NCBI GenBank assembly: GCA_030867685.1
Contig: JAQOWU010000008.1
Location: 1,860,001-1,924,000, forward strand
DNA: 64,000 nt
Source: Wickerhamiella versatilis
Lineage: Eukaryota
Direction: 5' to 3'
Positions 3,493 to 55,637 of the stretch are shown piece by piece. The position numbers were made by a program, and so were the translations under genes. Position 1 is the first letter of the stretch. Each line of letters starts with the position of its first letter. Under the pieces are notes generated by a model. The model was not told the DNA's origin. It saw only the letters and a program-made list of their open reading frames with translations, and did no database searches.

Positions 3493-3541
3493 AGACTGAG
3501 CGGATCCTTACGTCAGGGTTGTTGGTGCGACCTTTTTCTAG

Positions 3542-4288
3542 ATGCGTGTGTCTTGTCAATGCTTTGCGTCTAAGACAATGGGAATGGGTGGTGCCAAGAT
3601 GCTTGAGATCGGGAGGAAATGTCTCGACTCTAGGAATTTTGCCTGGGTGTGTGTTGACATTGAATGGTGGGAGCGAAATCCCAGGAAGATCACAGAAATC
3701 GGAATATCTATTTTAACAAGTGATCCTTTCAGACCAACTTTTGTCCCTGCCATGCAATCGTTTCACTTACTCCCCGACCCAGCATATAAAAAACTTAATG
3801 GCAGATATGTACCGAATCATCGTGATTATTTTGCATTCGGGACTTCTCGTGTCATGCCGCTCAAGGAATGTAAAAAATTCATGGAAGCTGTCTTCAATTT
3901 ATTTGCAAAAAGTCAAAGACAGCTGTTTCTTGTAGGTCACAATCTGCACAATGATATACGTCAATTACAAAATATTGGTATTGACGTTAATGCTTTACCA
4001 CCAGTTCTTGACACAATGGAAATTGGCTTGCATCTTTGGGGTCGTCCCATTGCACTCGGCGATATTTGTCGTCACATGCAGGTAGATGCAGGGCTTTTAC
4101 ACAATGCGGGAAACGATGCCCACGCAACAATGCTATTGCTTGCACAGCTTTGCGATAGAAATTTTAATATTCCTGAAGGCTCACCTGAAAAGGTTTCCAA
4201 TGATAAAGTTGAAAGAAAGTTATCACAAAAGGCGGGGTACCGCAGAAGGGAATCGGCAGAGAGTCTGGCCGATACCCTACAATGTTAA
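3542..4288 (+). CDS. DEDDh-type 3'-5' exonuclease-fold protein (Gfd2/YDR514C-like)
   Basis: CVDIEWWE...ITEIGISI, LVGHNLHND, LDT, LHNAGNDA motifs; true start could be a later Met (3578). Confidence 0.8.
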   Translation: MRVSCQCFASKTMGMGGAKMLEIGRKCLDSRNFAWVCVDIEWWERNPRKITEIGISILTSDPFRPTFVPAMQSFHLLPDPAYKKLNGRYVPNHRDYFAFGTSRVMPLKECKKFMEAVFNLFAKSQRQLFLVGHNLHNDIRQLQNIGIDVNALPPVLDTMEIGLHLWGRPIALGDICRHMQVDAGLLHNAGNDAHATMLLLAQLCDRNFNIPEGSPEKVSNDKVERKLSQKAGYRRRESAESLADTLQC

Positions 4289-8500: not shown

Positions 8501-8985
8501 ATAGTGTTAATAGTGTTCTTAAATTTCACAATATCTGGATCCAGCTCTTGGCTGTGTACTGTGACTTTCTTGCTAAGGTCACCTTGTGCGACGGCAATAA
8601 CAACCTCTCCAATTTCCTGAAGTGCGCGCTGAAATGCCCTGTTAGCATTCTGTGACTTCCGCAGCTCTAACGCTAGCAAATCCTTGTCCATGGGCAGACC
8701 CTGCTCTGTGGAGGCAGTAAGTTGTGTGACCATATTTTGCGCGTCTACAAGACGATGTTCAAGGTCTACTGTGGTATTCAATTGAATTTCAATATCCTTT
8801 TGCTGTCTCTCAACTCTTTTGTATACTTCGGACCAGGCAGCATCCCCACCCCGAGGATTAGCTATGGCCCTTTGCATGCGTTGAATTGACCGGTGAAGCA
8901 CAGGATCTAAATCATCCCCAAAATCATATCGCGGGCTAAGTCCGCTGTCAACGTAGCTGTCTATGCGTTGAGCTAGCGTCGTCAT
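5596..8985 (-). CDS. NIK1: Group III hybrid histidine kinase (poly-HAMP, HisKA, HATPase, receiver), Nik1/Os-1 type
   Basis: Five ~92-aa repeats (xAxGDLS), [17 protein letters not shown]-box, [10 protein letters not shown]2 box, LMDVQMP receiver. Confidence 0.96.
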
Positions 8986-9527: not shown

Positions 9528-10115
9528 TTATTCTTCTTCCAATAAACTATCATCTCTGACCCACACAGCTAAGTCGCTGAAAGCTGCGTACCAACGACTT
9601 CCAGGAATCTCCGGAATTTTTTTAAACGTTCCATTACTTCTCATTGTCTTAATAGGATTTAGAATCTCTGGACCAGGTGTGGGTCGGGGTTGGAAGTTTG
9701 TTAGGTTGTTACCCACATAATACTCGCAGTTAGGCTGGATTTTAGCAATGAGTGAAAGGGGAGCATGTGGTAGGTACCAGAGCGTCTGCTCCTTGCCCTC
9801 ATACAACTCTACTACCTTTATTCCAAAGCTATTTTGCAAGAGTTCAATATCTCTGGCGGTGAAAACTGGATCCCATGCGGTCACCTCCTTAATTTCAAGC
9901 ATATCAACTAATATAAGAAGCAAGGCCAATTGAAATCGTGGCCCCTGGTTCTCGGTTGGACTACCCAGGGCTAAGCAATGGAGGGAAGATATGGAAACCT
10001 CATCCAAATGTGATATCGATTGACAGAAAGATCTATACCAAGGAGATTCCTCTAATTCTCTTCGAAGTCCTTTGACTCGCTGGGCCACATACTCGAGAGA
10101 ACCTAAATTTGGCAT
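9528..10115 (-). CDS. BER1: SRR1-domain protein (Ber1-like)
   Basis: CLALGSP...RFQLALL, WDPVFT..D, LWYLPHAP, GNNL, AFSDLA; first ATG at 10115 (track start 10121 is GTG). Confidence 0.82.
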   Translation of the reverse strand: MPNLGSLEYVAQRVKGLRRELEESPWYRSFCQSISHLDEVSISSLHCLALGSPTENQGPRFQLALLLILVDMLEIKEVTAWDPVFTARDIELLQNSFGIKVVELYEGKEQTLWYLPHAPLSLIAKIQPNCEYYVGNNLTNFQPRPTPGPEILNPIKTMRSNGTFKKIPEIPGSRWYAAFSDLAVWVRDDSLLEEE

Positions 10116-10169
10116 AGGCACATTTATTAAGTCAGCGGGTTGTTTTCATTTAGCCAAATCGATAAAGCA

Positions 10170-11555
10170 ATGAGTGAACTTCATCAAGACTATGTACGGG
10201 CTAGCCAAGCACAGGTGCTGGATTTCTGGTCCAAATTATCCGATGAGGAGCAAAAACAACTTGATGCGCAGCTAACAATGTTTAATCCTGAGGAGGTAAA
10301 TAAAAACCTCAAACATGCACTCAACACCAAGGAAACACCCTCAGAAATAACCCCTCTTCCTGTCGATCAAACAGCAAGCGTGATAAATTCGCAGCCTGCT
10401 CAAATTGCGGAATGGCGCAATGTTGGTTTGGAGGCCATTAAGAAGGGTAAAGTCGCTGTCCTGCTTCTAGCTGGTGGACAAGGGACGCGTCTCGGCTCTT
10501 CTGCACCTAAGGGATGCTACGATGTGAATCTCCCCAGCAAAAGCTCATTGTTTGAGCTGCAAGCTCGAAGAATTGCCAAAATAGCGCAGCTCGCCCAAGC
10601 TGAGTCTGACGGAATACCTTGGTACATCATGACCTCTGGGCCTACAAAAGCTCCCACCAAGGAATTTTTTGAGAGTCACAAATATTTCGGCCTGGACCCG
10701 AAAAATGTAGTGTTCTTTGAGCAGGGTGTCCTGCCATGCACCACATCAGAGGGCAAGATACTATTGGAGACACCCTCTAAGGTCTCAGTAGCCCCGGACG
10801 GAAATGGCGGTGTTTATAAAGCCCTATCAAGAAGTGGTGCGCTTAAGGATATGCAATCTAGAGGAATCGAACATATCCACATGTATTGTGTGGATAACTC
10901 GTTAGTGAAGGTTGCCGATCCCGTATTTATTGGGTATGCGGCGTCCCACGATTTTGAAATTGCCACGAAGGTGGTTAGAAAGAGGTCCGCTGAAGAACCA
11001 GTTGGTCTTATTGTTGCAAAGGATAACAAGCCTAGTGTTATTGAATACTCAGAAATTTCTCATGAATTGGCCGAGGCGACAGAGCCCGACTCAAATCTAC
11101 TAAAGTTTCGTGCTGCTAATATCGTAAATCATTACTATTCGATGCGATTCCTCTCGAAATCAGAAGAGTTAGCAGGGGCTCTTCCATTCCACGTCGCTCA
11201 TAAAAAGATTCCCTGCGCATCCGAGAGCGGAGAAACAATCAAACCCTCGAAACCAAATGGAATCAAGCTCGAACAGTTTGTTTTTGACGTATTCCCACAA
11301 GTTTCCCTGAAAAAATTCGGCTGCCTGGAGGTTTCCAGGGAGGGTGAGTTTTCGCCGGTGAAAAATGCACCTGGTTCTGCTGAAGACTGCCCGGAAACCG
11401 CCAGAAGCGATGTCATGCGCGAGGGACAACGATGGCTCACAGCAGTGGGAGCTAATTGTCCTAATCCTGTTGAAATTACACCTGCAGTCAGTTATGGTGG
11501 GGAAGGCCTTGAATCTTTCAAAGGTGAAGATATTGGTGTGGTTCTATTAAGCTAA
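10170..11555 (+). CDS. QRI1: UDP-N-acetylglucosamine pyrophosphorylase
   Basis: LLAGGQGTRLGSSAPKG, PDGNGG, KLEQFVFDVF, EFSPVKN; first ATG at 10170. Confidence 0.97.
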   Translation: MSELHQDYVRASQAQVLDFWSKLSDEEQKQLDAQLTMFNPEEVNKNLKHALNTKETPSEITPLPVDQTASVINSQPAQIAEWRNVGLEAIKKGKVAVLLLAGGQGTRLGSSAPKGCYDVNLPSKSSLFELQARRIAKIAQLAQAESDGIPWYIMTSGPTKAPTKEFFESHKYFGLDPKNVVFFEQGVLPCTTSEGKILLETPSKVSVAPDGNGGVYKALSRSGALKDMQSRGIEHIHMYCVDNSLVKVADPVFIGYAASHDFEIATKVVRKRSAEEPVGLIVAKDNKPSVIEYSEISHELAEATEPDSNLLKFRAANIVNHYYSMRFLSKSEELAGALPFHVAHKKIPCASESGETIKPSKPNGIKLEQFVFDVFPQVSLKKFGCLEVSREGEFSPVKNAPGSAEDCPETARSDVMREGQRWLTAVGANCPNPVEITPAVSYGGEGLESFKGEDIGVVLLS

Positions 11556-11773
11556 AACTAGCCACTAAATGATGGCCATATAGGAACATAGAAGACAAAA
11601 AATTCTGTTTTTTTTTCTGAGCTACCCCTTTCATGGACAGAGTTAGAACAGAGTTCGCTCACTGAGACGGGTTTGATAATGCCAGATGGCACCCAGATAC
11701 CCCCCCCCGGAAAAAACCCGGCTTTTTGTGGGAGGCTGTGCATGGAAGATCTTAATCTCTGATATGAAATTTT

Positions 11774-12096: not shown

Positions 12097-12861
12097 ATGA
12101 GAGTTTTTCGCGATGAATTTCGCGTGCTACGGAGGCGGTATCGCCCTACAAAATTCCCGATAGTATTGTGTCACGGGCTGTTCGGATTTGATAAGGTTGC
12201 TGGGTTTTCTTATTGGAATGGCATCAAGGAATACCTGGAGCGCTATGGGGCCACAGTAATTTCCGACTCGGTCCCGCCGTTGGGTTCTATTGGGTCACGT
12301 GCAGAGCAACTAAAATCGTTATTGGAGCGGAAAGGATCCCAGCCAGTTAATTTAATTGCACATTCTATGGGTGGGTTAGACGCTCGTTATTATATTAGCA
12401 TGTCACCAAATGCACCAGTCGCTTCATTGACAACTATAAGTACTCCACATCATGGATCGACCATAGCAGACGTTTTTCAGGGGTGGTCCAAGAGCCTACC
12501 TCCTCAATTGGGTGCATTTTCAGAGCTTACCACTGAATACATGGAGAAGGAGTTCAATCCGAGGATACGGGACCGGCCGGGGGTGTCCTACATAAGCTAC
12601 GGTGCACAGTTCTTGCCTACCAGAACATCCCCCCTATATCTTCCCTGGAAATTCCTAAATGGGACAGACGGGGCTAATGATGGAGTAGTGAGCGTGAAGA
12701 GTTCTCACTGGGGGTCCTATCAAGGGACGCTGGAGGGCTGCGATCATTGGGATCTGGTTAATTTCACTTTTCACAGAAGAACGCAAGCGAATGAGCCCGG
12801 ATTTTTTGCACCAGCCATGTATTTACATGTCATGGACTCTTTGGCTGACATGGGATTTTAA
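12097..12861 (+). CDS. TGL2: Triacylglycerol lipase, Tgl2-like alpha/beta hydrolase
   Basis: PIVLCHGLFGFD, AHSMGGLDARY nucleophile elbow, TPHHGS, NDGVVSV, DHWDLVN. Confidence 0.9.
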   Translation: MRVFRDEFRVLRRRYRPTKFPIVLCHGLFGFDKVAGFSYWNGIKEYLERYGATVISDSVPPLGSIGSRAEQLKSLLERKGSQPVNLIAHSMGGLDARYYISMSPNAPVASLTTISTPHHGSTIADVFQGWSKSLPPQLGAFSELTTEYMEKEFNPRIRDRPGVSYISYGAQFLPTRTSPLYLPWKFLNGTDGANDGVVSVKSSHWGSYQGTLEGCDHWDLVNFTFHRRTQANEPGFFAPAMYLHVMDSLADMGF

Positions 12862-12916
12862 CCTTTGGCTTTGATTTCAAACTCAGATCTCGCGGGTAAG
12901 GGTTTGTTATGCTCGC

Positions 12917-14077
12917 ATGTCAGCAAACTGCACTGTGGAAATAGATAGCGAAAATGAATGGTTTACAGCGGGTGACAGAATGGCTGGTACCGTTCAGATA
13001 AACCTTATGAGAGCTACAGCCGTGAAGACAATATCTATAGGCCTTTTTTGTGAGCTGTTTGCCTCCTTGACAAGAGTGGATGATAATGGGCACAAGTGGA
13101 CTGACTCCGAAACCATCTCAAGAAATATGTGCGAGGAGTGGAAGCAACTATTTCCAGCGAAGTCATTGACAGGAACGCAGTACACACTCAACGCAGGACT
13201 GGCGAAATTCCCTTTTTTCTTCACGCTACCTCGTACTAGCAAGGACAATAATCATATGTTGCCACCGAGTCTCTCTGACGTTAATGACGACATAATTATC
13301 AGGTATTTCCTCAAAGTAAAGATCAAGAAGCCTAATTCCCTAACAAGCTCTTACTGGAAACCCTTCATATATCTTCCAGTGGATCCTAACCTGGATTTCT
13401 TGCCAGCGTTTGCAACTAAGAAAACGCATGCAAGCAAATTTCCCAAGAAAAACACGATGAAGAGCATTATTGGGCGTATCAACAGACTGACTCAGGATGT
13501 GACATCTGCTTGCGATGCAACATTCACCCTTCGTTGCGAGACTCTCTTAACCCCGGCCGTGAAATTTGCTCTGCTCATAAGTGCAAATAATAAGTCTGAG
13601 TCTTCGAGCATACACGTCAATGAAATATGCGTGACCTTGATAAGTCGAACTGAGACGACGGTAAAAAATATCCAAAAAGTCGCGGAGAAGCAACTGGAGC
13701 TTTTTCATCAACGACAAATGAATATCGAGGTACCTACTGCAAATGATAATATGGCCAAGTTAATATCTGAGTGCGGCTTAACCTTACCTGATACAGTTCC
13801 TCCCACTTTTGCAACAAATGAAATAAAGAGAAGCTATGCGCTTGATGCGAAAATTGGGTTCAAGTGTAATGGTTCTTCCTCGACTCATACATCCCATCTT
13901 GTCCAAAAAGTTTGGGTCTGCTCCGGTGTGAGCTCTGAGGATTATGGGGAAATGCTACCAGCATACGAGGAGTACCTAAATGTAGAGGTACCATTGTCAA
14001 GACCCACCAGAAAGTTTCCGCAATTACGGAGGTACTATAATGAGCGAAGCTTGACTTGGATGGCCGCACCAAATTAA
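12917..14077 (+). CDS. Arrestin-fold protein (Art10-like alpha-arrestin)
   Basis: FTAGDRMAGTVQI, FPFFFTLP, LPPS, IRYFLKV, VPPTF arrestin N/C motifs; LPAY PY-like motif. Confidence 0.7.
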   Translation: MSANCTVEIDSENEWFTAGDRMAGTVQINLMRATAVKTISIGLFCELFASLTRVDDNGHKWTDSETISRNMCEEWKQLFPAKSLTGTQYTLNAGLAKFPFFFTLPRTSKDNNHMLPPSLSDVNDDIIIRYFLKVKIKKPNSLTSSYWKPFIYLPVDPNLDFLPAFATKKTHASKFPKKNTMKSIIGRINRLTQDVTSACDATFTLRCETLLTPAVKFALLISANNKSESSSIHVNEICVTLISRTETTVKNIQKVAEKQLELFHQRQMNIEVPTANDNMAKLISECGLTLPDTVPPTFATNEIKRSYALDAKIGFKCNGSSSTHTSHLVQKVWVCSGVSSEDYGEMLPAYEEYLNVEVPLSRPTRKFPQLRRYYNERSLTWMAAPN

Positions 14078-14703: not shown

Positions 14704-15486
14704 AGCTAGAATCGGGCCGCTGGTCCTATTTACCTGAGTAATCGCAAGGGAATACGTAATTAAACAAGACCAGATTGACCCGGTTGAGGACCAATTTCTT
14801 TTGTCAATAATAATATGGAATATAAGTTATAATACCTGAATCATGAAAAAAAAAGGTCTAGACAAACTGTATTCATATTGTGTCTTCTGCTGGATGTCAG
14901 AGAAAAACAGATTTAGGAATGAGGGGGATTGTATCAGTATTTTATAGCATGGCGGAGAAATACCAAACACTTGTGTAGCAAAGTATGTATCTACCTCATA
15001 TATATCGCAAGCATAATATAATCGGCAACTAAATTTGTGCATAACCGGTGGTGTGGGGTGGCTGGGTTGGACTGGACTGGGCTTGGTTTGCTAAGAAAGG
15101 TACGAGTCATCCGTAGTTTGCACCATGGTGAACGCTGCTGCACTGGATAAGCAACAAAATCGATACATAAAGATAGAAATAGTATAGAAGGTTATGCTCA
15201 AAACAGAAAAACAAGGCGCAGGGTGGCAATCAACTAAAAATAGAACATTTATACATGTGTGTGTTGTATGAAGCGAGAAGAAGTTCCAATATAACTGTCT
15301 CACTCAATAAATCCCCGTTGATCACCTCATGATAGTGGAATTTGACGCGTGCAGATTTGCGACACGTGAACGTAAGCATCACGCGCATCTTTATCAGCAA
15401 ATTGTGAGCTCTTATCAAATGCTAACTAACTCTGGTCGTCATCCCTGCGCCTACCACACTGAGCTTTTCAGCCACTTTTTGAAATA

Positions 15487-17193
15487 ATGGGTTGGCGAGT
15501 AGGAGCGTCAGTCTTGTGTTTCTTATTGTTTGTGGCATTTGGATTACAGTTGATAGGATGCGTTTCTGTACCTGCCACGAAGCCTATTTTTATGGCTGAT
15601 CGCGACGGTTATAAGTACGGTGTCTGGGGAACTTGTAAGTCAGATGGAAGTGATTGCAGTTCAGTTGGTATTGGATATACGCTGCACAATGAAGACAGTT
15701 GGTACCTTGGCTCCTCATCACAAAAGATTTTAACAAAGCTGCTTCTAGTGCATACAATCGCTGCAGGTATATTGCTTATTACCTGGATAATGAGTTTTGG
15801 GCTATTAAAGCGCAACAGGGGCTTTGTGATCACGATGATTGTGGCCACTCTAATTAGTTTTATTGGTGTACTCTTCTCTTTTATTGTGGAAATACTGTTG
15901 TTCAGGGAACATCTTAAATGGCCTGGATACCTCAGTGTTGGCTCCATAGTACTTACAATCTTCGCATTTATCGGCCTTATGGTGATGTCACGCCGTAGTA
16001 AGGATGACTCGCGTGGTGAGATTGTAGTGGGTCCTTTTGGTGGCGACCAAGAAGAAGAAAAACTTATTAAACCGTCAAAGTTTGTACCGCCCGCAAGGCA
16101 GCAGGCACCTCCACTGGCCCTCAATTCATTGGGGTCAGGAGACACTAAGAAACCGTCGCCTCAGCCTAGAACGGTACCGCGAACGCAATATTCCTCCAGT
16201 GACCTAGCTGCACAACGTGAGAATAAACCTTCACAGCGAGTTGAGCAGACAACAGCAGACTCGCAGCTACCGCGACCAAACGGGCGCCAGAAGATGCCGG
16301 TGGGGCCTCAACCGCGGTCAGAGGGCACCCAGAACCCTCGTACGTTCCCTGGCGACAGGAATGAGACACCAGGGGGTCCACGTATTCCTGCGGGGGCTCC
16401 AGTCCCAGGAATGGATGATGATCGTCCCTACAGTGCCAGTGTCATAAGTGCTTATGCTTCGCGACCCGACCCTTCAACCCCTAACAGGGCTGAGGAAACG
16501 CCCCAGGCCCGAGCAACTCCAGAAGGACGACCGATTTACGGTGTTACGCATAGTGATTCTCAGCATGCAATGATAGACTACATGGGTGATAATGCTGCTG
16601 CCAATAATGATGGACCGGGAGCCCGCCGTATCCAAAGACCCCCTAACAGACCAGAAACACGCCAAGTTAGGCCGTACCAAGCTCAACTACAACCTCCAGT
16701 TGAACCTATTCCTGAAACACAGCCTATGGATGAAGAAGGCCAGACGCCTCTGGACTGGTATTTGTCAAATCCGCCCCAGCACGGCCAGAACGCATACTTT
16801 GAACCGCCGGTCACACAGTATGCGTATAATGTACCACCCTCTCCAGAGGGATCCGAGGGATCTCACTACACATCTATCAGCCAGCGTGCTCCACCTATGC
16901 CAATGGTCATGGGACCGATGATGCCGCCAGCAGGCGCACAGCCAATGTTCTCGAGTTATCCTGCACCTGTCATGGCACCACCAATGCAGGCGATGGCGCC
17001 ACCACCAATGCCGGGTATGGCACCGGGTATGGCACCAGGCATGGCACCGGGCATGGCACCGGGCATGGCACCAGCACAAGGGCCGCCAAAACCTTCGAAG
17101 CCCAATCGCTCAGAGCTGGCTCTTGACACAAACCCAGATTTCAGCATAGGCCCTGTTGGGCGTAGACGTCGCCCTGGTGGCGGTTTTGCTTAG
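15487..17193 (+). CDS. SUR7/PalI/Rim9 family membrane protein with long Pro/Gln-rich tail
   Basis: CVSVP, YGVWGTC...CSSVGIGY, four hydrophobic segments, then low-complexity C-terminus. Confidence 0.85.
   Translation: MGWRVGASVLCFLLFVAFGLQLIGCVSVPATKPIFMADRDGYKYGVWGTCKSDGSDCSSVGIGYTLHNEDSWYLGSSSQKILTKLLLVHTIAAGILLITWIMSFGLLKRNRGFVITMIVATLISFIGVLFSFIVEILLFREHLKWPGYLSVGSIVLTIFAFIGLMVMSRRSKDDSRGEIVVGPFGGDQEEEKLIKPSKFVPPARQQAPPLALNSLGSGDTKKPSPQPRTVPRTQYSSSDLAAQRENKPSQRVEQTTADSQLPRPNGRQKMPVGPQPRSEGTQNPRTFPGDRNETPGGPRIPAGAPVPGMDDDRPYSASVISAYASRPDPSTPNRAEETPQARATPEGRPIYGVTHSDSQHAMIDYMGDNAAANNDGPGARRIQRPPNRPETRQVRPYQAQLQPPVEPIPETQPMDEEGQTPLDWYLSNPPQHGQNAYFEPPVTQYAYNVPPSPEGSEGSHYTSISQRAPPMPMVMGPMMPPAGAQPMFSSYPAPVMAPPMQAMAPPPMPGMAPGMAPGMAPGMAPGMAPAQGPPKPSKPNRSELALDTNPDFSIGPVGRRRRPGGGFA
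17014..17073 (+). repeat. Coding 12-bp tandem repeat (GMAP)x5
   Basis: GGYATGGCACCR x5 in the PalI-like C-terminal tail. Confidence 0.95.
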
Positions 17194-17335: not shown

Positions 17336-17797
17336 ATGCTCAGTCGTTCAGTGCGCACCGGTCTTGCTCGCCCGGTGTCTAGAATAGCGCTGCCTAGGCG
17401 TTTCCAGAGTACAGAGAAGTATGACTTTGACCAAGACTCGCGGATGATTGGGCCATATCCTCATGTCAAGTTTGAGTACTATAACCATCGTCCCCAGGAC
17501 ATTAAGTATGATGATCAGCAGGGTCGCCGTAATCTAGGAGAGCCACTTCACCACCAGTATGATCTGATTGATGTCTGGTCGCCTGACCATTTCGATCAAC
17601 GGCCTGACTCTACCGCCTTCCGGTGGACACTCTACTTCGCGGGAATTATTTCCGCTTTCTCATACTACTGTTATTATACATGGGAAGATCCGAAGTTTGT
17701 TCGCAGGGAGTACCCGTATGATGGCCTTAACAAGGCTCTCGGTGGCGAAGATCACACTAAGGAGTTGTTCCAGGCCCGGCCTGATGTTGGAAAATAA
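17336..17797 (+). CDS. NADH:ubiquinone oxidoreductase accessory subunit NDUFB8/ASHI
   Basis: Mitochondrial presequence, YDDQQGRRNLGEPLH, WSPD, single TM, REYPYDGLNKALGG. Confidence 0.88.
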   Translation: MLSRSVRTGLARPVSRIALPRRFQSTEKYDFDQDSRMIGPYPHVKFEYYNHRPQDIKYDDQQGRRNLGEPLHHQYDLIDVWSPDHFDQRPDSTAFRWTLYFAGIISAFSYYCYYTWEDPKFVRREYPYDGLNKALGGEDHTKELFQARPDVGK

Positions 17798-17953: not shown

Positions 17954-18364
17954 CTACCAGACTCGGCATGTTTCCACTAGGCGGGTTATTGTCAGAAGTT
18001 CTTCTCTGTCTGCTTTGGAAGGGGTCTTCTCCGGCCCTATTGAGCTTGCTAGAGCTATAAACACACCACGGTTATCGTCAGTGCTTTGCCGGTTGATCAT
18101 CGAAGCAAGGATAGAGGCATATAACTGTCCATTGGAGTCATTAAAATTTGTTCCAATTAAAGGTCTGGGGGAAATTGACGGCAGAACAAGATCATCTGAG
18201 GAAACAAGTCCACCAGGCTGAGGGTACAACTGACACCAAAATGCTTTTCCAAGCCTTGCATTCTTGTAGACGAAAATAGAAATAACGTCTACGTAAGCCT
18301 CAGCAATAACAAAATATTCATCTTTGCCAGATTCACTTCTACCAGCAGCTGTTCGCCGTCGCAT
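17954..18364 (-). CDS. Probable proteasome assembly chaperone 3 (PAC3/Irc25-like)
   Basis: AYVDVISIFV..NARLG, PRPLIG, LYASILASMI, VFIAL pattern resembles fungal PAC3. Confidence 0.6.
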   Translation of the reverse strand: MRRRTAAGRSESGKDEYFVIAEAYVDVISIFVYKNARLGKAFWCQLYPQPGGLVSSDDLVLPSISPRPLIGTNFNDSNGQLYASILASMINRQSTDDNRGVFIALASSIGPEKTPSKADREELLTITRLVETCRVW

Positions 18365-18408
18365 CCCTCCTTATTTTCTCAGGCCTGGTTTGTAATCAAC
18401 TAGTCTGA

Positions 18409-18822
18409 ATGAGCAGTGCAAGGGCAGGCCCGGGTGCTCACCAGCGCGAAAGGACTCAACTTTTTGCAAATGCCAGGCCCCTTGCATCACGTAGTGGCAC
18501 TCCTATTGGGAGAGAGCCAACCCCCAGTTTCAATGATAGCGTTTTGAACCAGCTCGAGCAACAGCATGATGATCAGATTGATGGACTAAGTGCCAAGGTG
18601 CGGGTGCTGAGAGACCTGTCTGTGCGTATAGGTGACGAAGTAAGAGATTCTTCAAGTCTTCTGCAGACTATGGAGGGTGGATTTGAGACTGCGCGAACCT
18701 CTGTTAAAAATGTCATGACTCGCATGATTCGGACTGCGGATCAGTCTGGTATAAGTTGGCGTTCTTGGCTAGGCTTTTTTGCCATCATCGCATTATGTTT
18801 CTGGTTTGTTCTATGGCTCTAA
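18409..18822 (+). CDS. BET1: ER-Golgi Qc-SNARE Bet1
   Basis: RTQLF, LEQQHDDQIDGLSAKVRVLRDLSVRIGDEVR SNARE motif, C-terminal TM. Confidence 0.9.
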   Translation: MSSARAGPGAHQRERTQLFANARPLASRSGTPIGREPTPSFNDSVLNQLEQQHDDQIDGLSAKVRVLRDLSVRIGDEVRDSSSLLQTMEGGFETARTSVKNVMTRMIRTADQSGISWRSWLGFFAIIALCFWFVLWL

Positions 18823-23416: not shown

Positions 23417-23514
23417 GACGTAATATGGTATATAAGCTAAATTAAATAGAGGAGGTGGGAAATTCACCCGCCACATTTATGCAGAAAGCCATGGCCAGGC
23501 CACAAATACATGGC

Positions 23515-24999
23515 TTAGTCCATACTGTTAGCCTTTGGAGGGTCTGTTGATGATTTTGGACCGGTTATCCTTGAGCCTATAGACCAGCGCATGAATTTTA
23601 GAAACCGTTCTCCATATTCTGCAGCAGGAACCGCGGACAACTCCGACCGCTTATGCACAAATCCTTTACAGAATGTTTCAACCCGTTTCCTGAAGGTGTA
23701 CCCTGTGAGGAAATCAATAATTCCAACATAATATATGACGTCCAGCGTCTGATTGTTCTCGTCGGTGGACTGGTATCCGCAATGATCATGGTAAAAATAA
23801 AATTCCGAGCGGAAGTTATCCGCGAATGTAAACTCCGTTAATTTTTGAGGGTTCGTATGGGACAGAACTCGCTGTAGTTCTGCAAAGTCGCTCACATGTC
23901 TATTCTCTTCTGACCCTTCTCTACCAATTGGTCCGAACTCTTGAAGTCCTAGCAACCTGCCAAGAGCTGAGTTTCCACGTTTCATATCATGTATTCCTAC
24001 CAACAGCGAGTAATCCATAACATTGGCGCGCTCAAGCATTCGAACGTCAGATTCCAACTGTTTAAGTAAGTTTTCTCTCTTTTCAGGGCCAACGATTATT
24101 CTCTTGTGCTCTCGAAGCCAGTCCAGGTCCTTGTAGACTGTGACTGGCTTGGGATGCGAATCTTCGAGATAACTTCTGCCTAGAAGTGACCCCTTAAGGT
24201 CATACTTCTCGTGAATTTCATACAATGCTGGAAATACGTTGTTCATAACTAGAAAATGAATTTTTCGACCAAAAGGAAGTCTTACTCGATGGAGGCCATA
24301 GATTTGCGAGAGTAGGGTATTAGGATTGTTTTTTACATGATGATAATATTCATGCAGAATCTTGCGCAATTGCTTATGCTCCGCATGCCTGATTGTCTTG
24401 ATGACAAATCTATAATCACGCGAATAATAGAAAAAAGAACCACTCTTTCCCGGCGAGCCTAATTCGCTCACAATATACTTCGCCGTCAAAGACATTAAAT
24501 AGTCAGCAGGATCAAGTTTAAATATCTCGCGCAAATGGCGGAACACCCATGGCGCATAGTCCTTAAACCGGAAATCGTATTTTGAAGCAGCGGTAGTTCC
24601 AGTCCCACTTAAATCAAAACTCATCTCCTCCACTCTGTAAAAGTCAGAATCAGTTAAAGGGCGATCATTTTTTGCATTGCACCGCGACACAGCAACACGG
24701 ATACCCGTCAACATATTATATGCGGTCACAAAATTCTCATGTCCCTCGGAAACCCGGGTTCCCACCAGAACATCGTCAAGAGATTGTCTGTGCTGGCGCT
24801 TTACAGCCCTTGGCGGTGGCAATGGATTCGGTGCCTCGTCAGTACCCCTAATGACGGCCACTTCATCAGTTGTCTCAGTAGGCATCTGGGGCTTCTCCAC
24901 TTCCACATCTGTGTCTGTGCCTGATGTGTCACGTCGTTGCTCTGAAATGCTAGAGGAGCCTTCAGGAGTCACATATGGTTGCAGCTCTACTGACGCCAT
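23515..24999 (-). CDS. MSS4: Phosphatidylinositol-4-phosphate 5-kinase
   Basis: AYNMLTGIRVAVSRC, FKDYAPWVF, SPGKSGSFFY, YDLKGS, MDYSLLVG, GIID. Confidence 0.96.
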   Translation of the reverse strand: MASVELQPYVTPEGSSSISEQRRDTSGTDTDVEVEKPQMPTETTDEVAVIRGTDEAPNPLPPPRAVKRQHRQSLDDVLVGTRVSEGHENFVTAYNMLTGIRVAVSRCNAKNDRPLTDSDFYRVEEMSFDLSGTGTTAASKYDFRFKDYAPWVFRHLREIFKLDPADYLMSLTAKYIVSELGSPGKSGSFFYYSRDYRFVIKTIRHAEHKQLRKILHEYYHHVKNNPNTLLSQIYGLHRVRLPFGRKIHFLVMNNVFPALYEIHEKYDLKGSLLGRSYLEDSHPKPVTVYKDLDWLREHKRIIVGPEKRENLLKQLESDVRMLERANVMDYSLLVGIHDMKRGNSALGRLLGLQEFGPIGREGSEENRHVSDFAELQRVLSHTNPQKLTEFTFADNFRSEFYFYHDHCGYQSTDENNQTLDVIYYVGIIDFLTGYTFRKRVETFCKGFVHKRSELSAVPAAEYGERFLKFMRWSIGSRITGPKSSTDPPKANSMD

Positions 25000-25374: not shown

Positions 25375-28300
25375 TCATAAACCAGCTGACCGTGTTGACG
25401 ATGAGAACGTAGACCTGAGGTGCTCTGGGGCAACATTATTGCCAATCAATTCCACAACCAACTGGCGTCCTTCCATCCAGGGGTGTGCAAGTCCCAACCA
25501 AATGCCGTCAAAGTCACTCAACAGCCTAAGGTCTTTTCCAGTGATGATCTGGACTAATCTAGCTGGCCGCTGAGGGTCTGAGACCAAGCGAATCTCCACC
25601 ATTTCGGAAGATACTGCAATAACATAAGGAGGCATGTATGCCACATTTGTTGCTGGCGCTAGAAACCACGTAGGAACTCCAATGACATTGCCCTGAATGT
25701 CTGTAGATATGCAGCAGTGCTCGAATCCAATTAACAATCCTCCTTTCAACTTAGGGGTGACTGAGCGCACCGAACCCATAGCTTTCGTAGAAAACGGAAA
25801 CTCAGCAACAAAGTTGTAATCTATGGAAGCCCACTCAACGCCATTACTACGTGTATGAAGACATGCTCCTGTTGAGAAAGGAGTGAAGCCTACCACTGAA
25901 GATCCCACAGAAATACGATTAAATTCTCGGAAATAGTCAACACAGGCCTGTGGATTAAACGATGATGCGGTCTGTAAAGGTCGAGAACCGTGGGAGCGAA
26001 TCGGTTCCAAAAACTTTAGCAGGCCTGACTGTAAATAAATTACCACGGAACGCCCATTGCAGAAACCTGTATTTATGGAGAGGACACGCTTTTGTCTGTT
26101 AAGCCTATGCCCGAGTGTTCGGTGCTTGTCTCCTAAACCACGTGCAATAATTTGGTCCAGTGGATACCAAACAACATTCCCTTCTGTTACCAAAATTAGG
26201 CAATTGATTACCGGCAATAATTTTACCTGAGTGACACGAGGAAGGTCAATTACAGATTTCCATGTACCGGAGGTGGTGCCAAGCCATAATCCACCGTCAG
26301 TGCCGACAAGCATATATTCAGCACAAAGGTGTACACAATTGATGCGCCTTCGCAAAACAATTCTTTCTGTTCCTGCCTCATCAACACAACGTTGTAATCC
26401 TGTAGATGGAATTGGAACGGGTAGCCGCGGAGTATCTGCTTCAGGATATCCAAAAGCATCAGTAGTTTGGACCAAACGAAATGGCTCCGTTGATCTCGCA
26501 AATGCTGCGGCACAGCGGAGTCTTTTTGCTTCAATCAGTGAATCTATCCAAAGCTTTCTTTCCTGCTCAGATGTGGCGGCTAAGACATAAATGTCACCGG
26601 AAGATCCCAAATGCTTTATATGAAATGGCCACAGCTCCTCCTGGCGCGTCCTGTGAGATGCATCATCTACAGTCTCAATCACGAGTAAGTCCAGAGGGAT
26701 AGGCTGGCGCGTAATGTAAAAAGACGTGCCATTTTGACCTTCTCGAAGCTTACTGAGGATAAGGAAATGATCCAGAAGAAGCAAATGAACAGGAGTCCAC
26801 TCGATACGACCCTTTCTCTTGAGATCACCCCGTCTAATTAGTCTTCTACGTTTGTCAGTGAGACGGAGGTCTGCCATAACGTCATGGCTTTTAAAGACAA
26901 TTTGAGCCCTGAGGTTTTGTACATCAAGAGCTCGTTGCTGGGTAGCAATATGTTCATCACACAGCGTAGCAAGCCCATTGCAAGCTTTTTCAGCCTCCTT
27001 TATGTGTGACTCACTTCCTGCTTTATTGATAGCATGGAGCAGTAATTCGTACTTTGCCAAACGTGGCACAATTCGAGTGAAGAAAAAAGAGTGAGGCCGT
27101 CCACCTAGACGAGGATCATGGCTTGCCATATTCATCCACTCGGAGAACTTGCTCGAGCGAGCGAGCTCCTTTCGGAGATGGCCATCTGACCATAAGTAGT
27201 CATCGGCATATGCGGCATAGGTCTCTCGTGTAGTGGGCGAAGCGGCCCATTTTTCTACAATATCGCTCATAGCTCTAACCCATGGCCCTTGCTCTTGTTG
27301 ACGCCTTTGCAACTTTTTGAGAAATGGAACCTGAACACTTAAAACATTGCGAACGCGACCAAATACTCTTGCACAATACTCCGTTTGCTGTAGCATTACG
27401 CTTGGAATGACATTCTCCAGTGCACCATAAACATCAACAAAAATGCGGAGATCACGAACATAAGCTGCTTCACTGGTAACCAATTCATGCAGTGCATATT
27501 GCCTTTTAACCTCATCGCTTGGAGAAGGTGCAATTCCCCAGTAGGTCGCCCAGTCATCAGATTGCGAATCATTTGACTTAGATGAGCGTGAAACGGACGG
27601 TAATTCATATTGACAATGACAAGAGTAGCACCTATACGGCATAGTAGATTTTATAGGAGCATAGCATCCCGACCCTACCAATTCTGTCATTACACCTGTA
27701 ACTGATACTCGTGTGAGAGCCACAGTGTTTCCAATATTCTCAATGAATCCCTGATGCTGTAAAGACTTCACGGCTTGAATTGCTTGACTTTCAGCAGATG
27801 TCCAAGGAATGTTAGGAAGATGATAAGCTACGAGTTTAGCTAGTGCATCCTGAATACCCTGGATTTCCATATCAGTATCTGATGAAGCAAGAACGGTATG
27901 AAGCCATGATGAAATAGTAGACAGTGACCAAACATTCTTACAAGCGTCTAAATCTGCGACAGTGAGCTGCTCTGCACGAAATACCGGGCGAAACGCCTGC
28001 TCAGGAGGCAGCTGCGGCAAATTCAAGGGAAGTGATAGTGGCAAACTGGAAGTTTCCTCACCAGCGTCAATCGCAGGACTATGATCGTAGGCTGCTGGAG
28101 CTGGCACAGGCGGCAGCAGCTCAGGAGGAAACCATGGTACCTCCTCTGGGGTTAGCTCCGGCACATTATCGTCTATCGATGGGATATTAACCTCTGGGAA
28201 CGTAAGATGTGGAGGTACAGGCGGTGGTGGTGGACTCGGCGACATGTTCTCAGATGATCGTGGAAAAGGAAGGTCATTAACAGGATACGGAAGAGATACC

Positions 28301-28539
28301 GGATAAGGCAATCCTGAAGGGCTTTCGGGTACTGACGAAGGACTGAAAAGATTCGATAGACTTGCATCCTGTGTAGGATATGGCAGAGAGTCGTCGTTCG
28401 TAGGTATAGAAAGCGGTCTAGGCCCGACAGGCCGCGAAACATACTCACGCGGCTTGGCAGGTAATGGTGGTTTACCATCAAAACCTGGTATACCTGCTTG
28501 CCGCGACTCTATAGGTGGTGGACGCGGACCAGCAGGCAT
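25375..28539 (-). CDS. TUS1: Rho1 guanine nucleotide exchange factor (DH-PH-CNH), Tus1/Rgf3-like
   Basis: Pro-rich N-terminus with LPYP repeats, KRQYALHELVTSEAAYVRDL DH start, PRLAKYELLL, PH (LLLDHFLIL), CNH; first ATG at 28539. Confidence 0.8.
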   Translation of the reverse strand: MPAGPRPPPIESRQAGIPGFDGKPPLPAKPREYVSRPVGPRPLSIPTNDDSLPYPTQDASLSNLFSPSSVPESPSGLPYPVSLPYPVNDLPFPRSSENMSPSPPPPPVPPHLTFPEVNIPSIDDNVPELTPEEVPWFPPELLPPVPAPAAYDHSPAIDAGEETSSLPLSLPLNLPQLPPEQAFRPVFRAEQLTVADLDACKNVWSLSTISSWLHTVLASSDTDMEIQGIQDALAKLVAYHLPNIPWTSAESQAIQAVKSLQHQGFIENIGNTVALTRVSVTGVMTELVGSGCYAPIKSTMPYRCYSCHCQYELPSVSRSSKSNDSQSDDWATYWGIAPSPSDEVKRQYALHELVTSEAAYVRDLRIFVDVYGALENVIPSVMLQQTEYCARVFGRVRNVLSVQVPFLKKLQRRQQEQGPWVRAMSDIVEKWAASPTTRETYAAYADDYLWSDGHLRKELARSSKFSEWMNMASHDPRLGGRPHSFFFTRIVPRLAKYELLLHAINKAGSESHIKEAEKACNGLATLCDEHIATQQRALDVQNLRAQIVFKSHDVMADLRLTDKRRRLIRRGDLKRKGRIEWTPVHLLLLDHFLILSKLREGQNGTSFYITRQPIPLDLLVIETVDDASHRTRQEELWPFHIKHLGSSGDIYVLAATSEQERKLWIDSLIEAKRLRCAAAFARSTEPFRLVQTTDAFGYPEADTPRLPVPIPSTGLQRCVDEAGTERIVLRRRINCVHLCAEYMLVGTDGGLWLGTTSGTWKSVIDLPRVTQVKLLPVINCLILVTEGNVVWYPLDQIIARGLGDKHRTLGHRLNRQKRVLSINTGFCNGRSVVIYLQSGLLKFLEPIRSHGSRPLQTASSFNPQACVDYFREFNRISVGSSVVGFTPFSTGACLHTRSNGVEWASIDYNFVAEFPFSTKAMGSVRSVTPKLKGGLLIGFEHCCISTDIQGNVIGVPTWFLAPATNVAYMPPYVIAVSSEMVEIRLVSDPQRPARLVQIITGKDLRLLSDFDGIWLGLAHPWMEGRQLVVELIGNNVAPEHLRSTFSSSTRSAGL

Positions 28540-28569
28540 GGTGTCGTCGGGCACCAGGTTAGGGCTGGA

Positions 28570-29550
28570 ATGGTATCAGTCGATGAACTTGCAGATATCC
28601 TCTCACAGACAATCTTCAGTCTCCGGGGAAGCTTTGCACTTGTATTCTGTGCATGGTACTATCAGAAACTAGAATACTTAGCTCTCGCATGGACTACACT
28701 CATAAGTATAATTTACTTGTTGAGGTGTGTCAACTGTCGAATTGTATGGGGTAAAAAGCCGGAATATGATCCTAAGAAGGATGTCGTAATGGTTACTGGA
28801 TCATCAGGTGGTCTTGGACTTCTTATAACTGCACTTTTTGTTGACAGAGGGTTTAAGGTTGCTGCCGTGGATAATCGACCTGCACCGATAGATGTCTCGT
28901 CTAGCCAATTTTTGTGTGACGTTACCGACGAAAAACAAGTTCAAAAAGTGATCTTAGAGATTGAAAAAGAGTTCGGTTCGAAGCCCTTGATTTTGGTCTC
29001 TTGTGCCGGCGTGGCCATTGGAGGCACAGTCTTAAACACGGAGTCCGATGAAGTAAAAACTTGTATTGAGACTAATGTATTAGGCTCATTATGGGCCCTT
29101 CGCGCTGTCTTGCCGCACATGACAAGCAAGAAACGTGGTGCTGTTGTTGGTGTCTCGTCGTCTACCGCCTTAGCTTCACCAGCAGGAGCTGGCATTTATG
29201 CCGCTTCGAAAGCTGCAGTCCTGACATTTTACGAATCCCTGAGATATGAACTGCGGCATTCTGGCGTAAAAGTACTCTGTGCTGTTCCAGGACAACTAGA
29301 TACTCCTATGTTTGCCAGTATAAAGACACCCTCGCAGTTTTGGGCACCGGTATGTCCTGCCATTGATATTGCTGAAAAAATAGTGGACTCAATAATTCAA
29401 GGTCGCCAGGGACAGCTCGTTCATCCATTATATGTGCGACTATTGCCAATTATACTTGCGGTATTACCCACTGCTATAGTGGATCTCCTAAGGAGATTTT
29501 TTGGTATCGACCAGGCGATGCAAACTTGGAAGAAGACAAAGTTGCAGTAG
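28570..29550 (+). CDS. Short-chain dehydrogenase/reductase with N-terminal TM (Tda5-like)
   Basis: VTGSSGGLG Rossmann motif, YAASK catalytic motif, PGQLDTPMF; first ATG at 28570. Confidence 0.88.
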   Translation: MVSVDELADILSQTIFSLRGSFALVFCAWYYQKLEYLALAWTTLISIIYLLRCVNCRIVWGKKPEYDPKKDVVMVTGSSGGLGLLITALFVDRGFKVAAVDNRPAPIDVSSSQFLCDVTDEKQVQKVILEIEKEFGSKPLILVSCAGVAIGGTVLNTESDEVKTCIETNVLGSLWALRAVLPHMTSKKRGAVVGVSSSTALASPAGAGIYAASKAAVLTFYESLRYELRHSGVKVLCAVPGQLDTPMFASIKTPSQFWAPVCPAIDIAEKIVDSIIQGRQGQLVHPLYVRLLPIILAVLPTAIVDLLRRFFGIDQAMQTWKKTKLQ

Positions 29551-42358: not shown

Positions 42359-43879
42359 TCAAGTTCGAACATTACTTGGCCATTTAGCCATCATAGAATC
42401 ATATGCTTCCTGTGGGGATTCTTTCAATGCGTTAACTACAGTATTTACCATAGAAGGTGAGTCTGTTCTCGGGATTGGTCCAAATAGGGTGGGATCAATG
42501 TCCGCCAGCGGCCACTGATCCTGCGTGCCCCAGTCGATTTGTCGCACAGGATTCGGTCCTTTTGTTGCATCCCAATCAAGCTTAGTACAGAGCGAATCGA
42601 AAAAAGCAACCCCAGGATCACGGAGCTGTGATCCCAGCCTGCGAATAATTTGGCGGCCCCATATGCGAGATTTCGGCGTCAATACTTGACGGCTAGCTAG
42701 ACATAAAATCATTCCTGCTGCAATAGAAATATTTGGGGCTTTTTTCATAACAGCCAACGTATGTAGCATGTGCTCCCATGTTTCAGGGTCGGGTGATATT
42801 CCATGTTGTCTCTTGAAATACCCCACAAGTCCGATATGCCAGTCAAGGCGCCGAAACCCCCAAGTACTTTTCAGCATAGCATTGAGTAAACTCACGTCAG
42901 GTTTCATGTCCTGTACATTTACCGCGTGGCTTAGAAATTTGAAAGCCATCTGGGCCCGTTGTAAAATAGGTTCCTGTCTGTTTTGCAACAGCTTGGTAAC
43001 TAACAGAATCACTGCCTCCGGTGGGAGCTTTTTGCCTTGGTCGAGTGCATATTCTAAAGCACGTTCCAGGCCATGGCTGGTACACACTATGTCAAGGCAC
43101 ATTGCTAGAGATCTACCATCGAGTGGAATTTGTCTTTTGGTCATTTCCTCTAAAACCAAGCTTTTCCCAAAACCCATGGGCGATCCCTGTAAAACCAGAT
43201 TCCAGGTAAGGGAATTCGCGGGTAACGAGTGCCGTTTCATTTCGTTCAAGACACTAATCGTGCGCAAACATGGGTTACCACCTATCAACGTTGCGGGAGC
43301 CATCGCCTGCGATCGTAGGAAATGATGCATCGTATCAGGCGTTGGTTTAATAAATACAGCATTCATATTGGATACCATTTGACGCGCTTGCTCGAGATCT
43401 CTTATACGGACAAAATATTCGATGGCTAGATTAAATGCCGAAGTATTAAGTGAATCCACCGTGCGCTCATTAGTTGGTCTCAAAACATCCCTGACAACGA
43501 TGCTTATAAGGCCTGCAGGATCAGTTAACCGCTGAGCTCCAACATATCTCCACTTGGTGATTTCGTGGATAAAATGCGTTAACGACTGCTTGCTCCATAC
43601 ACCAGGTATCGCAGGAAGCGATTTCTGCGAGCGATAACCAAGAAATTCCGAGTTCTCCGAGCGTGCTTCGGTCGGATGTATACTCAATTCATCCAAGCTA
43701 CGTATTATCGAGGATAACAGGACTCGAGTTTGACGAAGGTACTGGAGCGTATCTCTCTCCGTCCAGTTACCTTGCCATTTAAGTTTTGGATATAGTTTTG
43801 GCGCAGGATTTGGACTACCCACACCGAAAAACTCGTTCAGTTTGTGCTTTAATGGTCCGAGCTTAGCGCCATTTTTCAT
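42359..43879 (-). CDS. Mitochondrial PPR-like protein (Aep3-like)
   Basis: AFNLAIEYF, KPTPDTMHHFL, ANSLTWNLVL, KPDVSLLNAML, SPDPETW PPR-type repeats; first ATG at 43879. Confidence 0.65.
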   Translation of the reverse strand: MKNGAKLGPLKHKLNEFFGVGSPNPAPKLYPKLKWQGNWTERDTLQYLRQTRVLLSSIIRSLDELSIHPTEARSENSEFLGYRSQKSLPAIPGVWSKQSLTHFIHEITKWRYVGAQRLTDPAGLISIVVRDVLRPTNERTVDSLNTSAFNLAIEYFVRIRDLEQARQMVSNMNAVFIKPTPDTMHHFLRSQAMAPATLIGGNPCLRTISVLNEMKRHSLPANSLTWNLVLQGSPMGFGKSLVLEEMTKRQIPLDGRSLAMCLDIVCTSHGLERALEYALDQGKKLPPEAVILLVTKLLQNRQEPILQRAQMAFKFLSHAVNVQDMKPDVSLLNAMLKSTWGFRRLDWHIGLVGYFKRQHGISPDPETWEHMLHTLAVMKKAPNISIAAGMILCLASRQVLTPKSRIWGRQIIRRLGSQLRDPGVAFFDSLCTKLDWDATKGPNPVRQIDWGTQDQWPLADIDPTLFGPIPRTDSPSMVNTVVNALKESPQEAYDSMMAKWPSNVRT

Positions 43880-43925
43880 TTCATAGCCTTCACCCAATTA
43901 GTCATCCACCGGTTTATTCACAGCT

Positions 43926-44123
43926 ATGAATAGAGATTCATTTGTGCCACCCACTGCTGGAAGCAGCGGCCTGTCAAAGTCATACGGCGCAAGGTACTTG
44001 TGTGCTAGCTGTGCCTCATATGTATCTCTCTCTAAAGGTGAGCCTGTGAGATGTAAAGAGTGCGGGCACCGGGTTTTGTACAAAGAACGATCTCGCCGAG
44101 TCATTCAATTCGAGGCACGCTGA
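43926..44123 (+). CDS. RPC10: RNA polymerases I/II/III shared subunit Rpb12/ABC10alpha
   Basis: YLCASC...VRCKECGHRVLYKERSRRVIQFEAR zinc ribbon. Confidence 0.97.
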   Translation: MNRDSFVPPTAGSSGLSKSYGARYLCASCASYVSLSKGEPVRCKECGHRVLYKERSRRVIQFEAR

Positions 44124-44330: not shown

Positions 44331-44801
44331 TCAAGACATCAGTTTTTTGTCGTTACCGCCATCAACAATCAATATAGGCTCGCATGGGGTGGATAGCCTA
44401 AAAAGCTTTCTGCGGGGTCGCTTCCACAGTCTCTTACGCACAAATGAGCGCAAGTACGAGTGTCCACCATGCCATTTCTTACTTCTGAAGTGGAATGCAT
44501 AACACCAGCCCTGGTCGTCAACATGGTGGTTCATCTCAATGAACCATCGAGGCCAAATCCATTCCCAGCTATCATCTGGCGTTTCAAGAGTTCTCAGGTC
44601 AGTACCTAAAGGTAAACCCTCAAGTGAAGAGAATGGCGCTGGGTCGAGTGGCAGAAGAGCGGATGCGCTAAAGAATGGATATCCAAACATGAAAAGCCCC
44701 CGCTGCGATTCAACCTGATATTCGACAACAACATCAGCCATTTGCTTGGCCACTTTATTGCCCTCGGTAGAGCGCGACTGTCGCGCCTCAATGTTGTGCA
44801 T
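44331..44801 (-). CDS. SPO73: Dysferlin-domain prospore-membrane protein (Spo73/Mug65-like)
   Basis: ESQRGLFMFGYPFFS..LLPLDP, WEW..PRWFIEM..VDDQGWCY, FVRKRLWKR; start 44801 or 44741. Confidence 0.8.
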   Translation of the reverse strand: MHNIEARQSRSTEGNKVAKQMADVVVEYQVESQRGLFMFGYPFFSASALLPLDPAPFSSLEGLPLGTDLRTLETPDDSWEWIWPRWFIEMNHHVDDQGWCYAFHFRSKKWHGGHSYLRSFVRKRLWKRPRRKLFRLSTPCEPILIVDGGNDKKLMS

Positions 44802-54802: not shown

Positions 54803-54846
54803 ATAAGCCCTGAGATCCTTATTCAGCTTGTTGAATACACTTAACA

Positions 54847-55275: not shown

Positions 55276-55637
55276 TCAGAACGCTCACTTTCTTTCCATG
55301 GAAGCACGAACATTTGCCACACTCGCCCATTCGCATCTGAGTTAAGTGGATGGCAGGTGGGTACTGAATATATAGCTTAGAGAATGTTTATAGAGGACCT
55401 TATACAGGTAAAATTTTGTCAATGTCATTAGAGGGTTTCAGTGGCAACACACTTGTACACCTTGGAGTAATTATGGCAACAGTCACTCAGCGGTTCACGT
55501 GCTTAGCAAGAGTAAAAAAACCTATATGTCTACGATTAAATGCTGCATTATAATGCCAATAATGGGACATGCAAGTTGGGGGGAAACCTTATACATCCCA
55601 GTCTAGTACCTGGTATATCAATTGCTCAAAGGCAGAG

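Follow-up and report, generated by a model that had tools for sequence, protein, structure and literature searches.

Head-to-Head Gene Pairs in the Window

A window of 64,000 nucleotides from Wickerhamiella versatilis (GenBank assembly GCA_030867685.1, contig JAQOWU010000008.1, positions 1,860,001 to 1,924,000 of the forward strand; all coordinates below are those of the window) contains six divergent gene pairs whose first ATG codons are separated by 30, 44, 44, 46, 49 and 54 bp. The tightest pair is formed by a TUS1-like RhoGEF gene (25375-28539, minus strand; 1054 residues; Pfam WH_RGF3, RhoGEF, PH and CNH) and the gene of a membrane short-chain dehydrogenase (SDR; 28570-29550, plus strand; 326 residues; Pfam adh_short from residue 72), with a spacer of 30 bp between them (28540-28569; 67% G+C; ATGs at 28539 on the minus strand and 28570 on the plus strand).

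Two spacers measure 44 bp: 18365-18408, between the PAC3-like gene (17954-18364, minus strand) and BET1 (18409-18822, plus strand), and 54803-54846, between CTK1 (53588-54802, minus strand) and GRX5 (54847-55275, plus strand). The AEP3-like PPR gene (42359-43879, minus strand) and RPC10 (43926-44123, plus strand) are 46 bp apart (43880-43925), TEL2 (1357-3492, minus strand) and a DEDDh exonuclease gene (3542-4288, plus strand) 49 bp (3493-3541), and BER1 (9528-10115, minus strand) and QRI1 (10170-11555, plus strand) 54 bp (10116-10169). Gaps were taken from a list of open reading frames (ORFs; standard code, ATG starts only) and the spacers were also read directly from the sequence; both agreed with the six gaps and their positions as given in a preliminary description of the window, and the gap list of the window likewise returned the 104 bp described for each of SLO1/TGL2 and SDO1/NRD1. 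By the ORF list and Pfam, each of the six pairs consists of divergent protein-coding genes with no gene in between.

The gene labels of the preliminary description agreed with a Pfam match for 10 of the 12 ORFs (RhoGEF plus CNH, adh_short, Pkinase, Glutaredoxin, PPR, RPAB4 zinc ribbon, Telomere_reg-2, DEDDh exonuclease, SRR1 and UDPGP), and were less secure for the remaining two. The sole Pfam match of BET1 was Use1 (E = 0.003; 17.7 bits, below the cut-off of 38.3), and PAC3 had no Pfam match; the PAC3-like protein has a 136-residue orthologue of the same length (73% identity) and a high-confidence lead to a proteasome chaperone in a protein atlas.

The 14 divergent gaps in the window measured 30, 44, 44, 46, 49, 54, 104, 104, 170, 356, 384, 557, 748 and 783 bp. 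Tight gaps (30-54 bp) thus made up 6/14 divergent pairs, or 6/13 if the ORFs orf156 and orf106, which have no Pfam family, are no genes. At least six tight pairs in 14 would be rare by chance (P = 1.7e-7, taking as rate the 2% of the quantile tabulated in PMC3128071). The tight head-to-head pairs are a separate low mode of the gap distribution and the sharpest expression of a general compaction.

Start Codons of the Paired Genes

The gaps depend on the first ATGs being the true starts. The preliminary description had named real starts lying well downstream as the finding that would undo its reading; this failed for every gene checked. In the eight genes with an N-terminal Pfam domain suited to the purpose, the next in-frame Met fell within or past that domain. 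Among these, SDR has its second Met at residue 74 and adh_short from residue 72, CTK1 its second Met at 89 and the kinase domain from 62, and BER1 its second Met at 72 and the SRR1 domain from 38. The same comparison was ambiguous for the TUS1-like gene and the exonuclease, and BET1 and the PAC3-like gene have no usable domain.

Solved structures and orthologues extended these results. Residues 1-65 of RPC10 aligned to 1-72 of the yeast Rpb12 chain 5xog_L, residue 3 of QRI1 to residue 9 of 9g53_B (a UDP-GlcNAc pyrophosphorylase of 484 residues), residues 385-585 of TEL2 to 372-587 of the yeast Tel2 chain 3o4z_A, and residues 31-140 of GRX5 to 2-111 of the yeast Grx5 chain 3gx8_A (121 residues); the first 30 residues of GRX5 would be a mitochondrial presequence. 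SDR aligned with 4 of its 6 best non-self representatives from the first residue of both proteins onward (40-44% identity). Met1 of the PAC3-like protein is common to its 73%-identical orthologue, a stop codon stands immediately upstream of the BET1 ATG, and the orthologue P0006 of the exonuclease (64% identity) shares the starting Met and has FASK conserved ahead of Met13. For the AEP3-like gene, the position of the next Met (168) and coding potential were the only grounds for the start.

The orthologue P0004 of the TUS1-like protein (79% identity, 985 residues) begins at the position of residue 69. It conserves residues 77-98, and the gene itself has no further Met before residue 99, which excludes Met99 and leaves Met1 as the only AUG available. 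With a codon model trained on other genes, the annotated frame was the best of the three forward frames in 16/16 N-terminal segments. Differences between the window and the sequencing run X20 (described below) were synonymous in 16/21 cases, including 5/7 in residues 1-98 of the TUS1-like protein. To the extent that domains, structure alignments, orthologues and coding potential can tell, the first ATGs are the true start codons.

Residues 1-68 of the TUS1-like protein (28336-28539) are proline-rich and have no counterpart in the 985-residue orthologue; they may be a recent extension over a former leader.

RNA at the TUS1-Like/SDR Pair

RNA reads were mapped at one of the six pairs only, TUS1-like/SDR, over 27940-29139 in bins of 40 bp. 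X23 and X24 are raw-read RNA-seq runs with the same species label and from one sample, with 540 and 550 mapped reads, respectively; X20 is a run guessed to be RNA and about 98% identical to the window, and X4 is an assembly-like run.

Depth was 68 (X23) and 73 (X24) at 28420-28459, decreased to 49 and 46 at 28500-28539 and to 16 in both runs at 28540-28579, the bin with the spacer, and rose again to 36 and 37 at 28580-28619 and to 60 and 57 at 28620-28659. The TUS1-like and SDR genes were thus two discrete blocks of coverage, of about 60-70x each, with the minimum of depth, an approximately four-fold drop, in the spacer bin. Coverage of the TUS1-like gene extended up to its ATG. Pile-ups of fragment ends fell within 28546-28614 in 9/9 rows listed, 5/9 of them at 28546, 28548 and 28549 and in both runs; the remaining pile-ups, at 28565, 28592 and 28614 (6, 6 and 5 molecules), were seen in X23 only, and 28592 and 28614 lie inside the SDR coding sequence. 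The cluster at 28546-28549 was read as the 5' ends of the TUS1-like mRNA (minus strand; leader of about 7-10 nt), and the pile-up at 28565 as the 5' end of the SDR mRNA (plus strand; leader of 5 nt).

Contigs of X20 ended at 28548 on the TUS1 side and restarted at 28588 on the SDR side, and none spanned the spacer. X4 covered 27940-29139 flat at a depth of 16.4 and without differences. Over the same interval, X23 and X24 had no spliced reads and no loose ends, and few reads were partly mapped (6/540 in X23 and 12/550 in X24), so that a strain-specific indel is not the cause of the break. The argument for start sites rests on the depth dip, the pile-ups of ends and the contig breaks coinciding on a non-conserved spacer of 30 bp.

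Depth was alike on the TUS1-like and SDR genes in both X23 and X24, which come from a single sample. Each gene is transcribed into an mRNA of its own, at about the same abundance as the other, and the 5' ends of both lie within the spacer. Under both readings of the table of fragment ends, both mRNAs begin within the 30 bp, with start sites 0-19 bp apart and leaders of about 5-24 nt. Transcript overrun into the neighbour was not seen at this junction, the one 5'-5' junction examined, and most molecules did not cross the start codon of the partner, as the four-fold drop and the contig breaks show.

The strain of the RNA runs had four fixed differences from the window in 1200 bp (27985, 28483, 28787 and 28821), three synonymous and one a Val-to-Ala change in SDR. 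X20 had 21 differences from the window, none of them in 28480-28726, where about 4 were expected (P = 0.018); this hints weakly at additional constraint near the starts.

Sequence Content of the Spacers

The spacer motifs described here were all picked after looking, and are leads and not findings. No single motif was common to all six spacers. The telomere-repeat-like motif GGTTAGGG (28557-28564) lies between the two clusters of start sites of the TUS1-like/SDR pair, and each of the other five spacers (44-54 bp) has one or two short motifs in its middle. The heptamer GGTTAGG, which we take to be a Tbf1-type motif, has 6 copies in the window, 2 in coding DNA and 4 in divergent spacers (28557, 30372, 37544 and 49627; post hoc P = 1.2e-4). 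TTAGTCA occurs in the AEP3-like/RPC10 spacer, and GATCCTTACGTCAGGGTTGTT and TTACGTCA in the TEL2/exonuclease spacer, which has GATCCTTA in common with CTK1/GRX5 and GGGTTGTT in common with BER1/QRI1.

AP-1-like heptamers had 11/24 matches in promoter-containing intergenic DNA, which makes up 10.9% of the window (post hoc). These AP-1/Yap-like heptamers were TGACTCA, TTAGTCA and TGACTAA, and octamers of the TGACGTCA type had 3/6 matches in promoter-containing intergenic DNA; sites of the two kinds lie at 795, 12025, 25019, 25061, 32885, 43898 and 49971, and elsewhere. Judging by these sites, a bZIP factor may act as a widespread activator in this genome.

TATA-like matches were not in excess in the six spacers plus 160-nt flanks (5 matches with one mismatch in 1920 nt; the window as a whole has 3.95 per kb per strand). 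Within 160-200 nt of the six spacers, neither an A/T-rich dip nor an A/T-rich stretch was found. Inverted repeats of at least 8 nt were absent from 5/6 spacer regions; one inverted pair of 8 nt flanks the AEP3/RPC10 spacer and is within chance by a rough estimate. Direct repeats formed 35 families in the window, and none of the 20 families shown falls in a spacer. Reading by eye, with no motif search run, revealed no common motif in the 70 nt upstream of 45 genes. A purine stood at position -3 in 7/12 genes of tight pairs and in 22/33 other genes.

Gene Density and Other Features of the Window

The gene map comprises about 45 genes in the 64 kb, and coding sequence, computed with 46 ORFs, amounted to 84%. 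Short distances were also seen outside the divergent pairs. A tandem gap of 38 bp separates the PIP5K stop from the ATG of a rhodanese-domain gene (23476-23515), and one of 55 bp the TGL2-like stop from an arrestin-like ATG (12861-12917); at both, the 3' end of the upstream gene and the promoter of the downstream gene must overlap coding DNA. BET1 overlaps a convergent GAF-domain gene by 12 bp at their 3' ends (18811-18822), and convergent gaps measured 51 bp for SDR/SDO1 and 61 bp for WD40/PMT.

ORFs without a Pfam family lie at 44331-44801 (minus strand, 156 codons) and 55569-55889 (plus strand, 106 codons), and further ones at 11558-11743 (minus strand, 61 codons) and 14827-15042 (minus strand, 71 codons). 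Whether the family-less ORFs are genes alters the class of two intergenic regions and of none of the six tight pairs. The window also holds a hybrid histidine kinase of the group III type with repeated HAMP domains (5596-8985, minus strand) and an NDUFB8-like subunit of complex I (17336-17797, plus strand), both of which, to our knowledge, are missing from Saccharomyces. A 12-nt tandem repeat (17011-17074; four overlapping copies of 28 nt with a spacing of 12 nt) lies in the 3' part of a gene of the SUR7/PalI family.

Promoter Arrangement and Alternative Explanations

The six pairs probably represent interdigitated minimal bidirectional promoters of RNA polymerase II (Pol II) in a strongly compacted budding-yeast genome. 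The preliminary description had proposed either near-leaderless mRNAs from one minimal bidirectional promoter, or promoters embedded in the coding sequence of the partner with overlapping 5' ends. The first proposal was borne out at TUS1-like/SDR by the depth dip, the ends at 28546-28549 and 28565, and the contig breaks. As to the second, wide overlap is not the main form at this pair, whereas a promoter within the coding sequence of the partner survives as an inference: start sites 0-19 bp apart leave no room for one pre-initiation complex, and the core promoter of each gene therefore has to be sought in the transcribed and coding DNA of the other.

Under such an arrangement, the 30-bp spacer itself could accommodate one or two factor sites at most, and the DNA between the two start sites at most one, here GGTTAGGG. 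The footprint of the pre-initiation complex upstream of each start would coincide with the beginning of the partner's transcribed and coding sequence, over its first tens of bases. The core promoters of the TUS1-like and SDR genes would thus interdigitate, and simultaneous loading of polymerase in both directions on one DNA molecule is probably impossible. Translation would start from the first AUG although it is only 5-10 nt from the cap. By analogy, the other five pairs (44-54 bp) may work like TUS1-like/SDR.

Several observations weigh against this interpretation. The RNA data are from one pair and one biological sample, the libraries are random-primed, apparently unstranded and not specific for 5' ends, and the RNA status of X20 is a guess only. 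The mapping tool cautions that a depth dip alone proves nothing. The labels "begin" and "end" in the table of fragment ends are ambiguous, and place the SDR start either at 28565 or at 28546-28548, with a leader of 22-24 nt in the latter case. Depth in the spacer bin was about 16 and not 0, which allows for a minority of longer, overlapping transcripts, and the pile-up at 28614 (5 molecules in one run) could be a start of the TUS1-like gene inside the SDR coding sequence. No adaptation to leaky scanning was apparent, with the next ATG in any frame at a median of 41.5 nt in the 12 genes of tight pairs vs. 54 nt in 33 others (one-sided P = 0.73). The AEP3-like gene and BER1 each have two upstream ATGs on the sense strand within their own spacers. 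Finally, residues 1-68 of the TUS1-like protein are missing from the orthologue of a related species, so that their translation from Met1 is deduced from the sequence.

Overlapping head-to-head transcripts that start deep in the coding sequence of the partner, with leaders of at least 50 nt and a sense/antisense overlap of the 5' ends, are an unlikely explanation. Compaction forces overlap somewhere, as at the tandem gaps of 38 and 55 bp and the 12-bp convergent overlap, the non-zero depth of the spacer bin and the pile-up at 28614 agree with some overlap, and the RNA view covers one of the six pairs; at that pair, however, depth fell about four-fold precisely over the spacer and recovered on both sides, fragment ends clustered within the spacer, and no contig of X20 spanned it. 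Much less probable still are mis-called starts, with the real ones downstream or in an upstream exon and real spacers of ordinary length. This explanation would draw on the orthologue of the TUS1-like protein, which begins at the position of residue 69, on further Met codons in the exonuclease (13, 15 and 20) and in GRX5 (30), and on the AEP3-like gene, whose start was placed by the next Met and by coding potential. It is contradicted by the evidence from domains, structures, orthologues and coding potential and largely refuted by it; furthermore, no spliced RNA reads were found in 27940-29139, and the latest possible start of the exonuclease still leaves a gap of 106 bp.

Evolutionary Route and Significance

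A tentative evolutionary route, compatible with interdigitated minimal promoters as the best explanation, is that the promoters did not shrink and that ORFs instead grew upstream over former leaders by means of an in-frame ATG near the cap. Such growth would agree with the 68 extra N-terminal residues of the TUS1-like protein relative to its 79%-identical orthologue, and with the N-termini adjacent to the spacers being the least conserved parts of the PAC3-like and exonuclease alignments. On the other hand, the N-termini of RPC10, QRI1 and SDR align from their first residues with distant orthologues, and their starts are therefore old; growth of ORFs also leaves the near-coincidence of two start sites unexplained. 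Because of these old N-termini and the near-coincident start sites, ORF growth is not the whole story. When metagenomes were scanned with the SDR protein, the 80 loci recovered were all distant SDRs (24-40% identity), and none was an orthologous locus.

In a bolder version of the bidirectional-promoter reading, which is speculative, the lineage would have exchanged a promoter plan of about 150 bp for a point-like bidirectional initiator at many divergent pairs, in which a single factor site of about 15-45 bp acts in both directions, pre-initiation complexes form on coding DNA, and AUGs 5-10 nt from the cap are routinely used without a TISU-like context. A mode resembling that of microsporidia and Giardia would then have evolved independently in a free-living budding yeast.

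If the interpretation holds, the minimum of DNA between two Pol II genes of a free-living eukaryote would decrease from about 80 to about 30 bp when measured from start codon to start codon, and almost vanish when measured between start sites. In many genes, the core promoter of a neighbour would be carried within the first tens of codons, and this dual constraint could shape the evolution of N-termini. The question raised for translation is how an AUG 5-10 nt from the cap is recognised. The spacers would also be natural two-way promoter parts of 30-54 bp for yeast engineering, and, if leaders are this short in general, start codons in such genomes could be called from RNA 5' ends.

Comparison with Known Systems

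Across 11 Saccharomycetaceae, conserved divergent lengths between coding sequences had a 2% quantile of 78-255 bp (Chen, Wei & Lercher 2011, PMC3128071, Table 1), and the same paper terms promoter-containing regions below about 130 bp practically absent in that family. The divergent lengths it reports are bimodal, the short mode is read as one two-way promoter, and the minimum scales with compactness (PMC3128071). The window is like these bidirectional promoters as described there in having a short divergent mode; here that mode comprises 6/14 pairs at 30-54 bp, with start sites 0-19 bp apart at TUS1-like/SDR. Genome-wide mean intergenic lengths given for three Starmerella-clade yeasts are 370-549 bp (preprint 10.1101/399394), and a paper on the Wickerhamiella/Starmerella clade, in the part consulted, treats gene density along chromosomes and not spacer lengths (PMC13376923). 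For Starmerella/Wickerhamiella or other compact yeasts, no published description of such pairs was found in papers taken without their supplements.

The start clusters of the TUS1-like/SDR pair differ from those of a shared promoter of the usual yeast type. The start sites of shared bidirectional promoters of S. cerevisiae flank a nucleosome-free region of about 100-200 bp that contains the promoter elements, whereas the clusters at 28546-28549 and 28565 are only 0-19 bp apart. Initiation is stated to need about 30 bp of upstream DNA in Yarrowia lipolytica and in fission yeasts, and 50-120 bp in the remaining budding yeasts studied (Lu & Lin 2021, PMC7849388). Both the classic model, with TATA at about -30, and the scanning model, as outlined in that paper, would put the upstream DNA in the coding sequence of the partner; TATA-like matches are not in excess here.

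Encephalitozoon cuniculi is described as having leaders of less than 7 nt, transcripts that often run over into neighbouring genes, and a CCC-like motif ahead of the ATG (Peyretaillade et al. 2009, PMC2803860). The window resembles it in a compact genome, leaders of a few nucleotides (about 5-24 nt at TUS1-like/SDR) and transcription signals beside or inside coding DNA. It differs from that obligate intracellular parasite with a genome of 2.9 Mb in belonging to a fermentation yeast (its runs give assemblies of about 9-11 million letters), in having no shared upstream motif by eye (12 contexts, no motif search run), and in the absence of overrun at the TUS1-like/SDR 5'-5' junction. In mammalian genes whose leaders are very short, the TISU element surrounds the start codon with the core AAGAUGG (Elfakess & Dikstein 2008, PMC2518114). 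It offers a parallel in that a single short element at the start codon could act in transcription as well as in translation of such mRNAs; unlike in TISU genes, the AAGAUGG core was found at 0/12 start codons here. On the basis of one RNA-tested pair and one 64-kb window, the arrangement would be a new, extreme variant of short bidirectional promoters.

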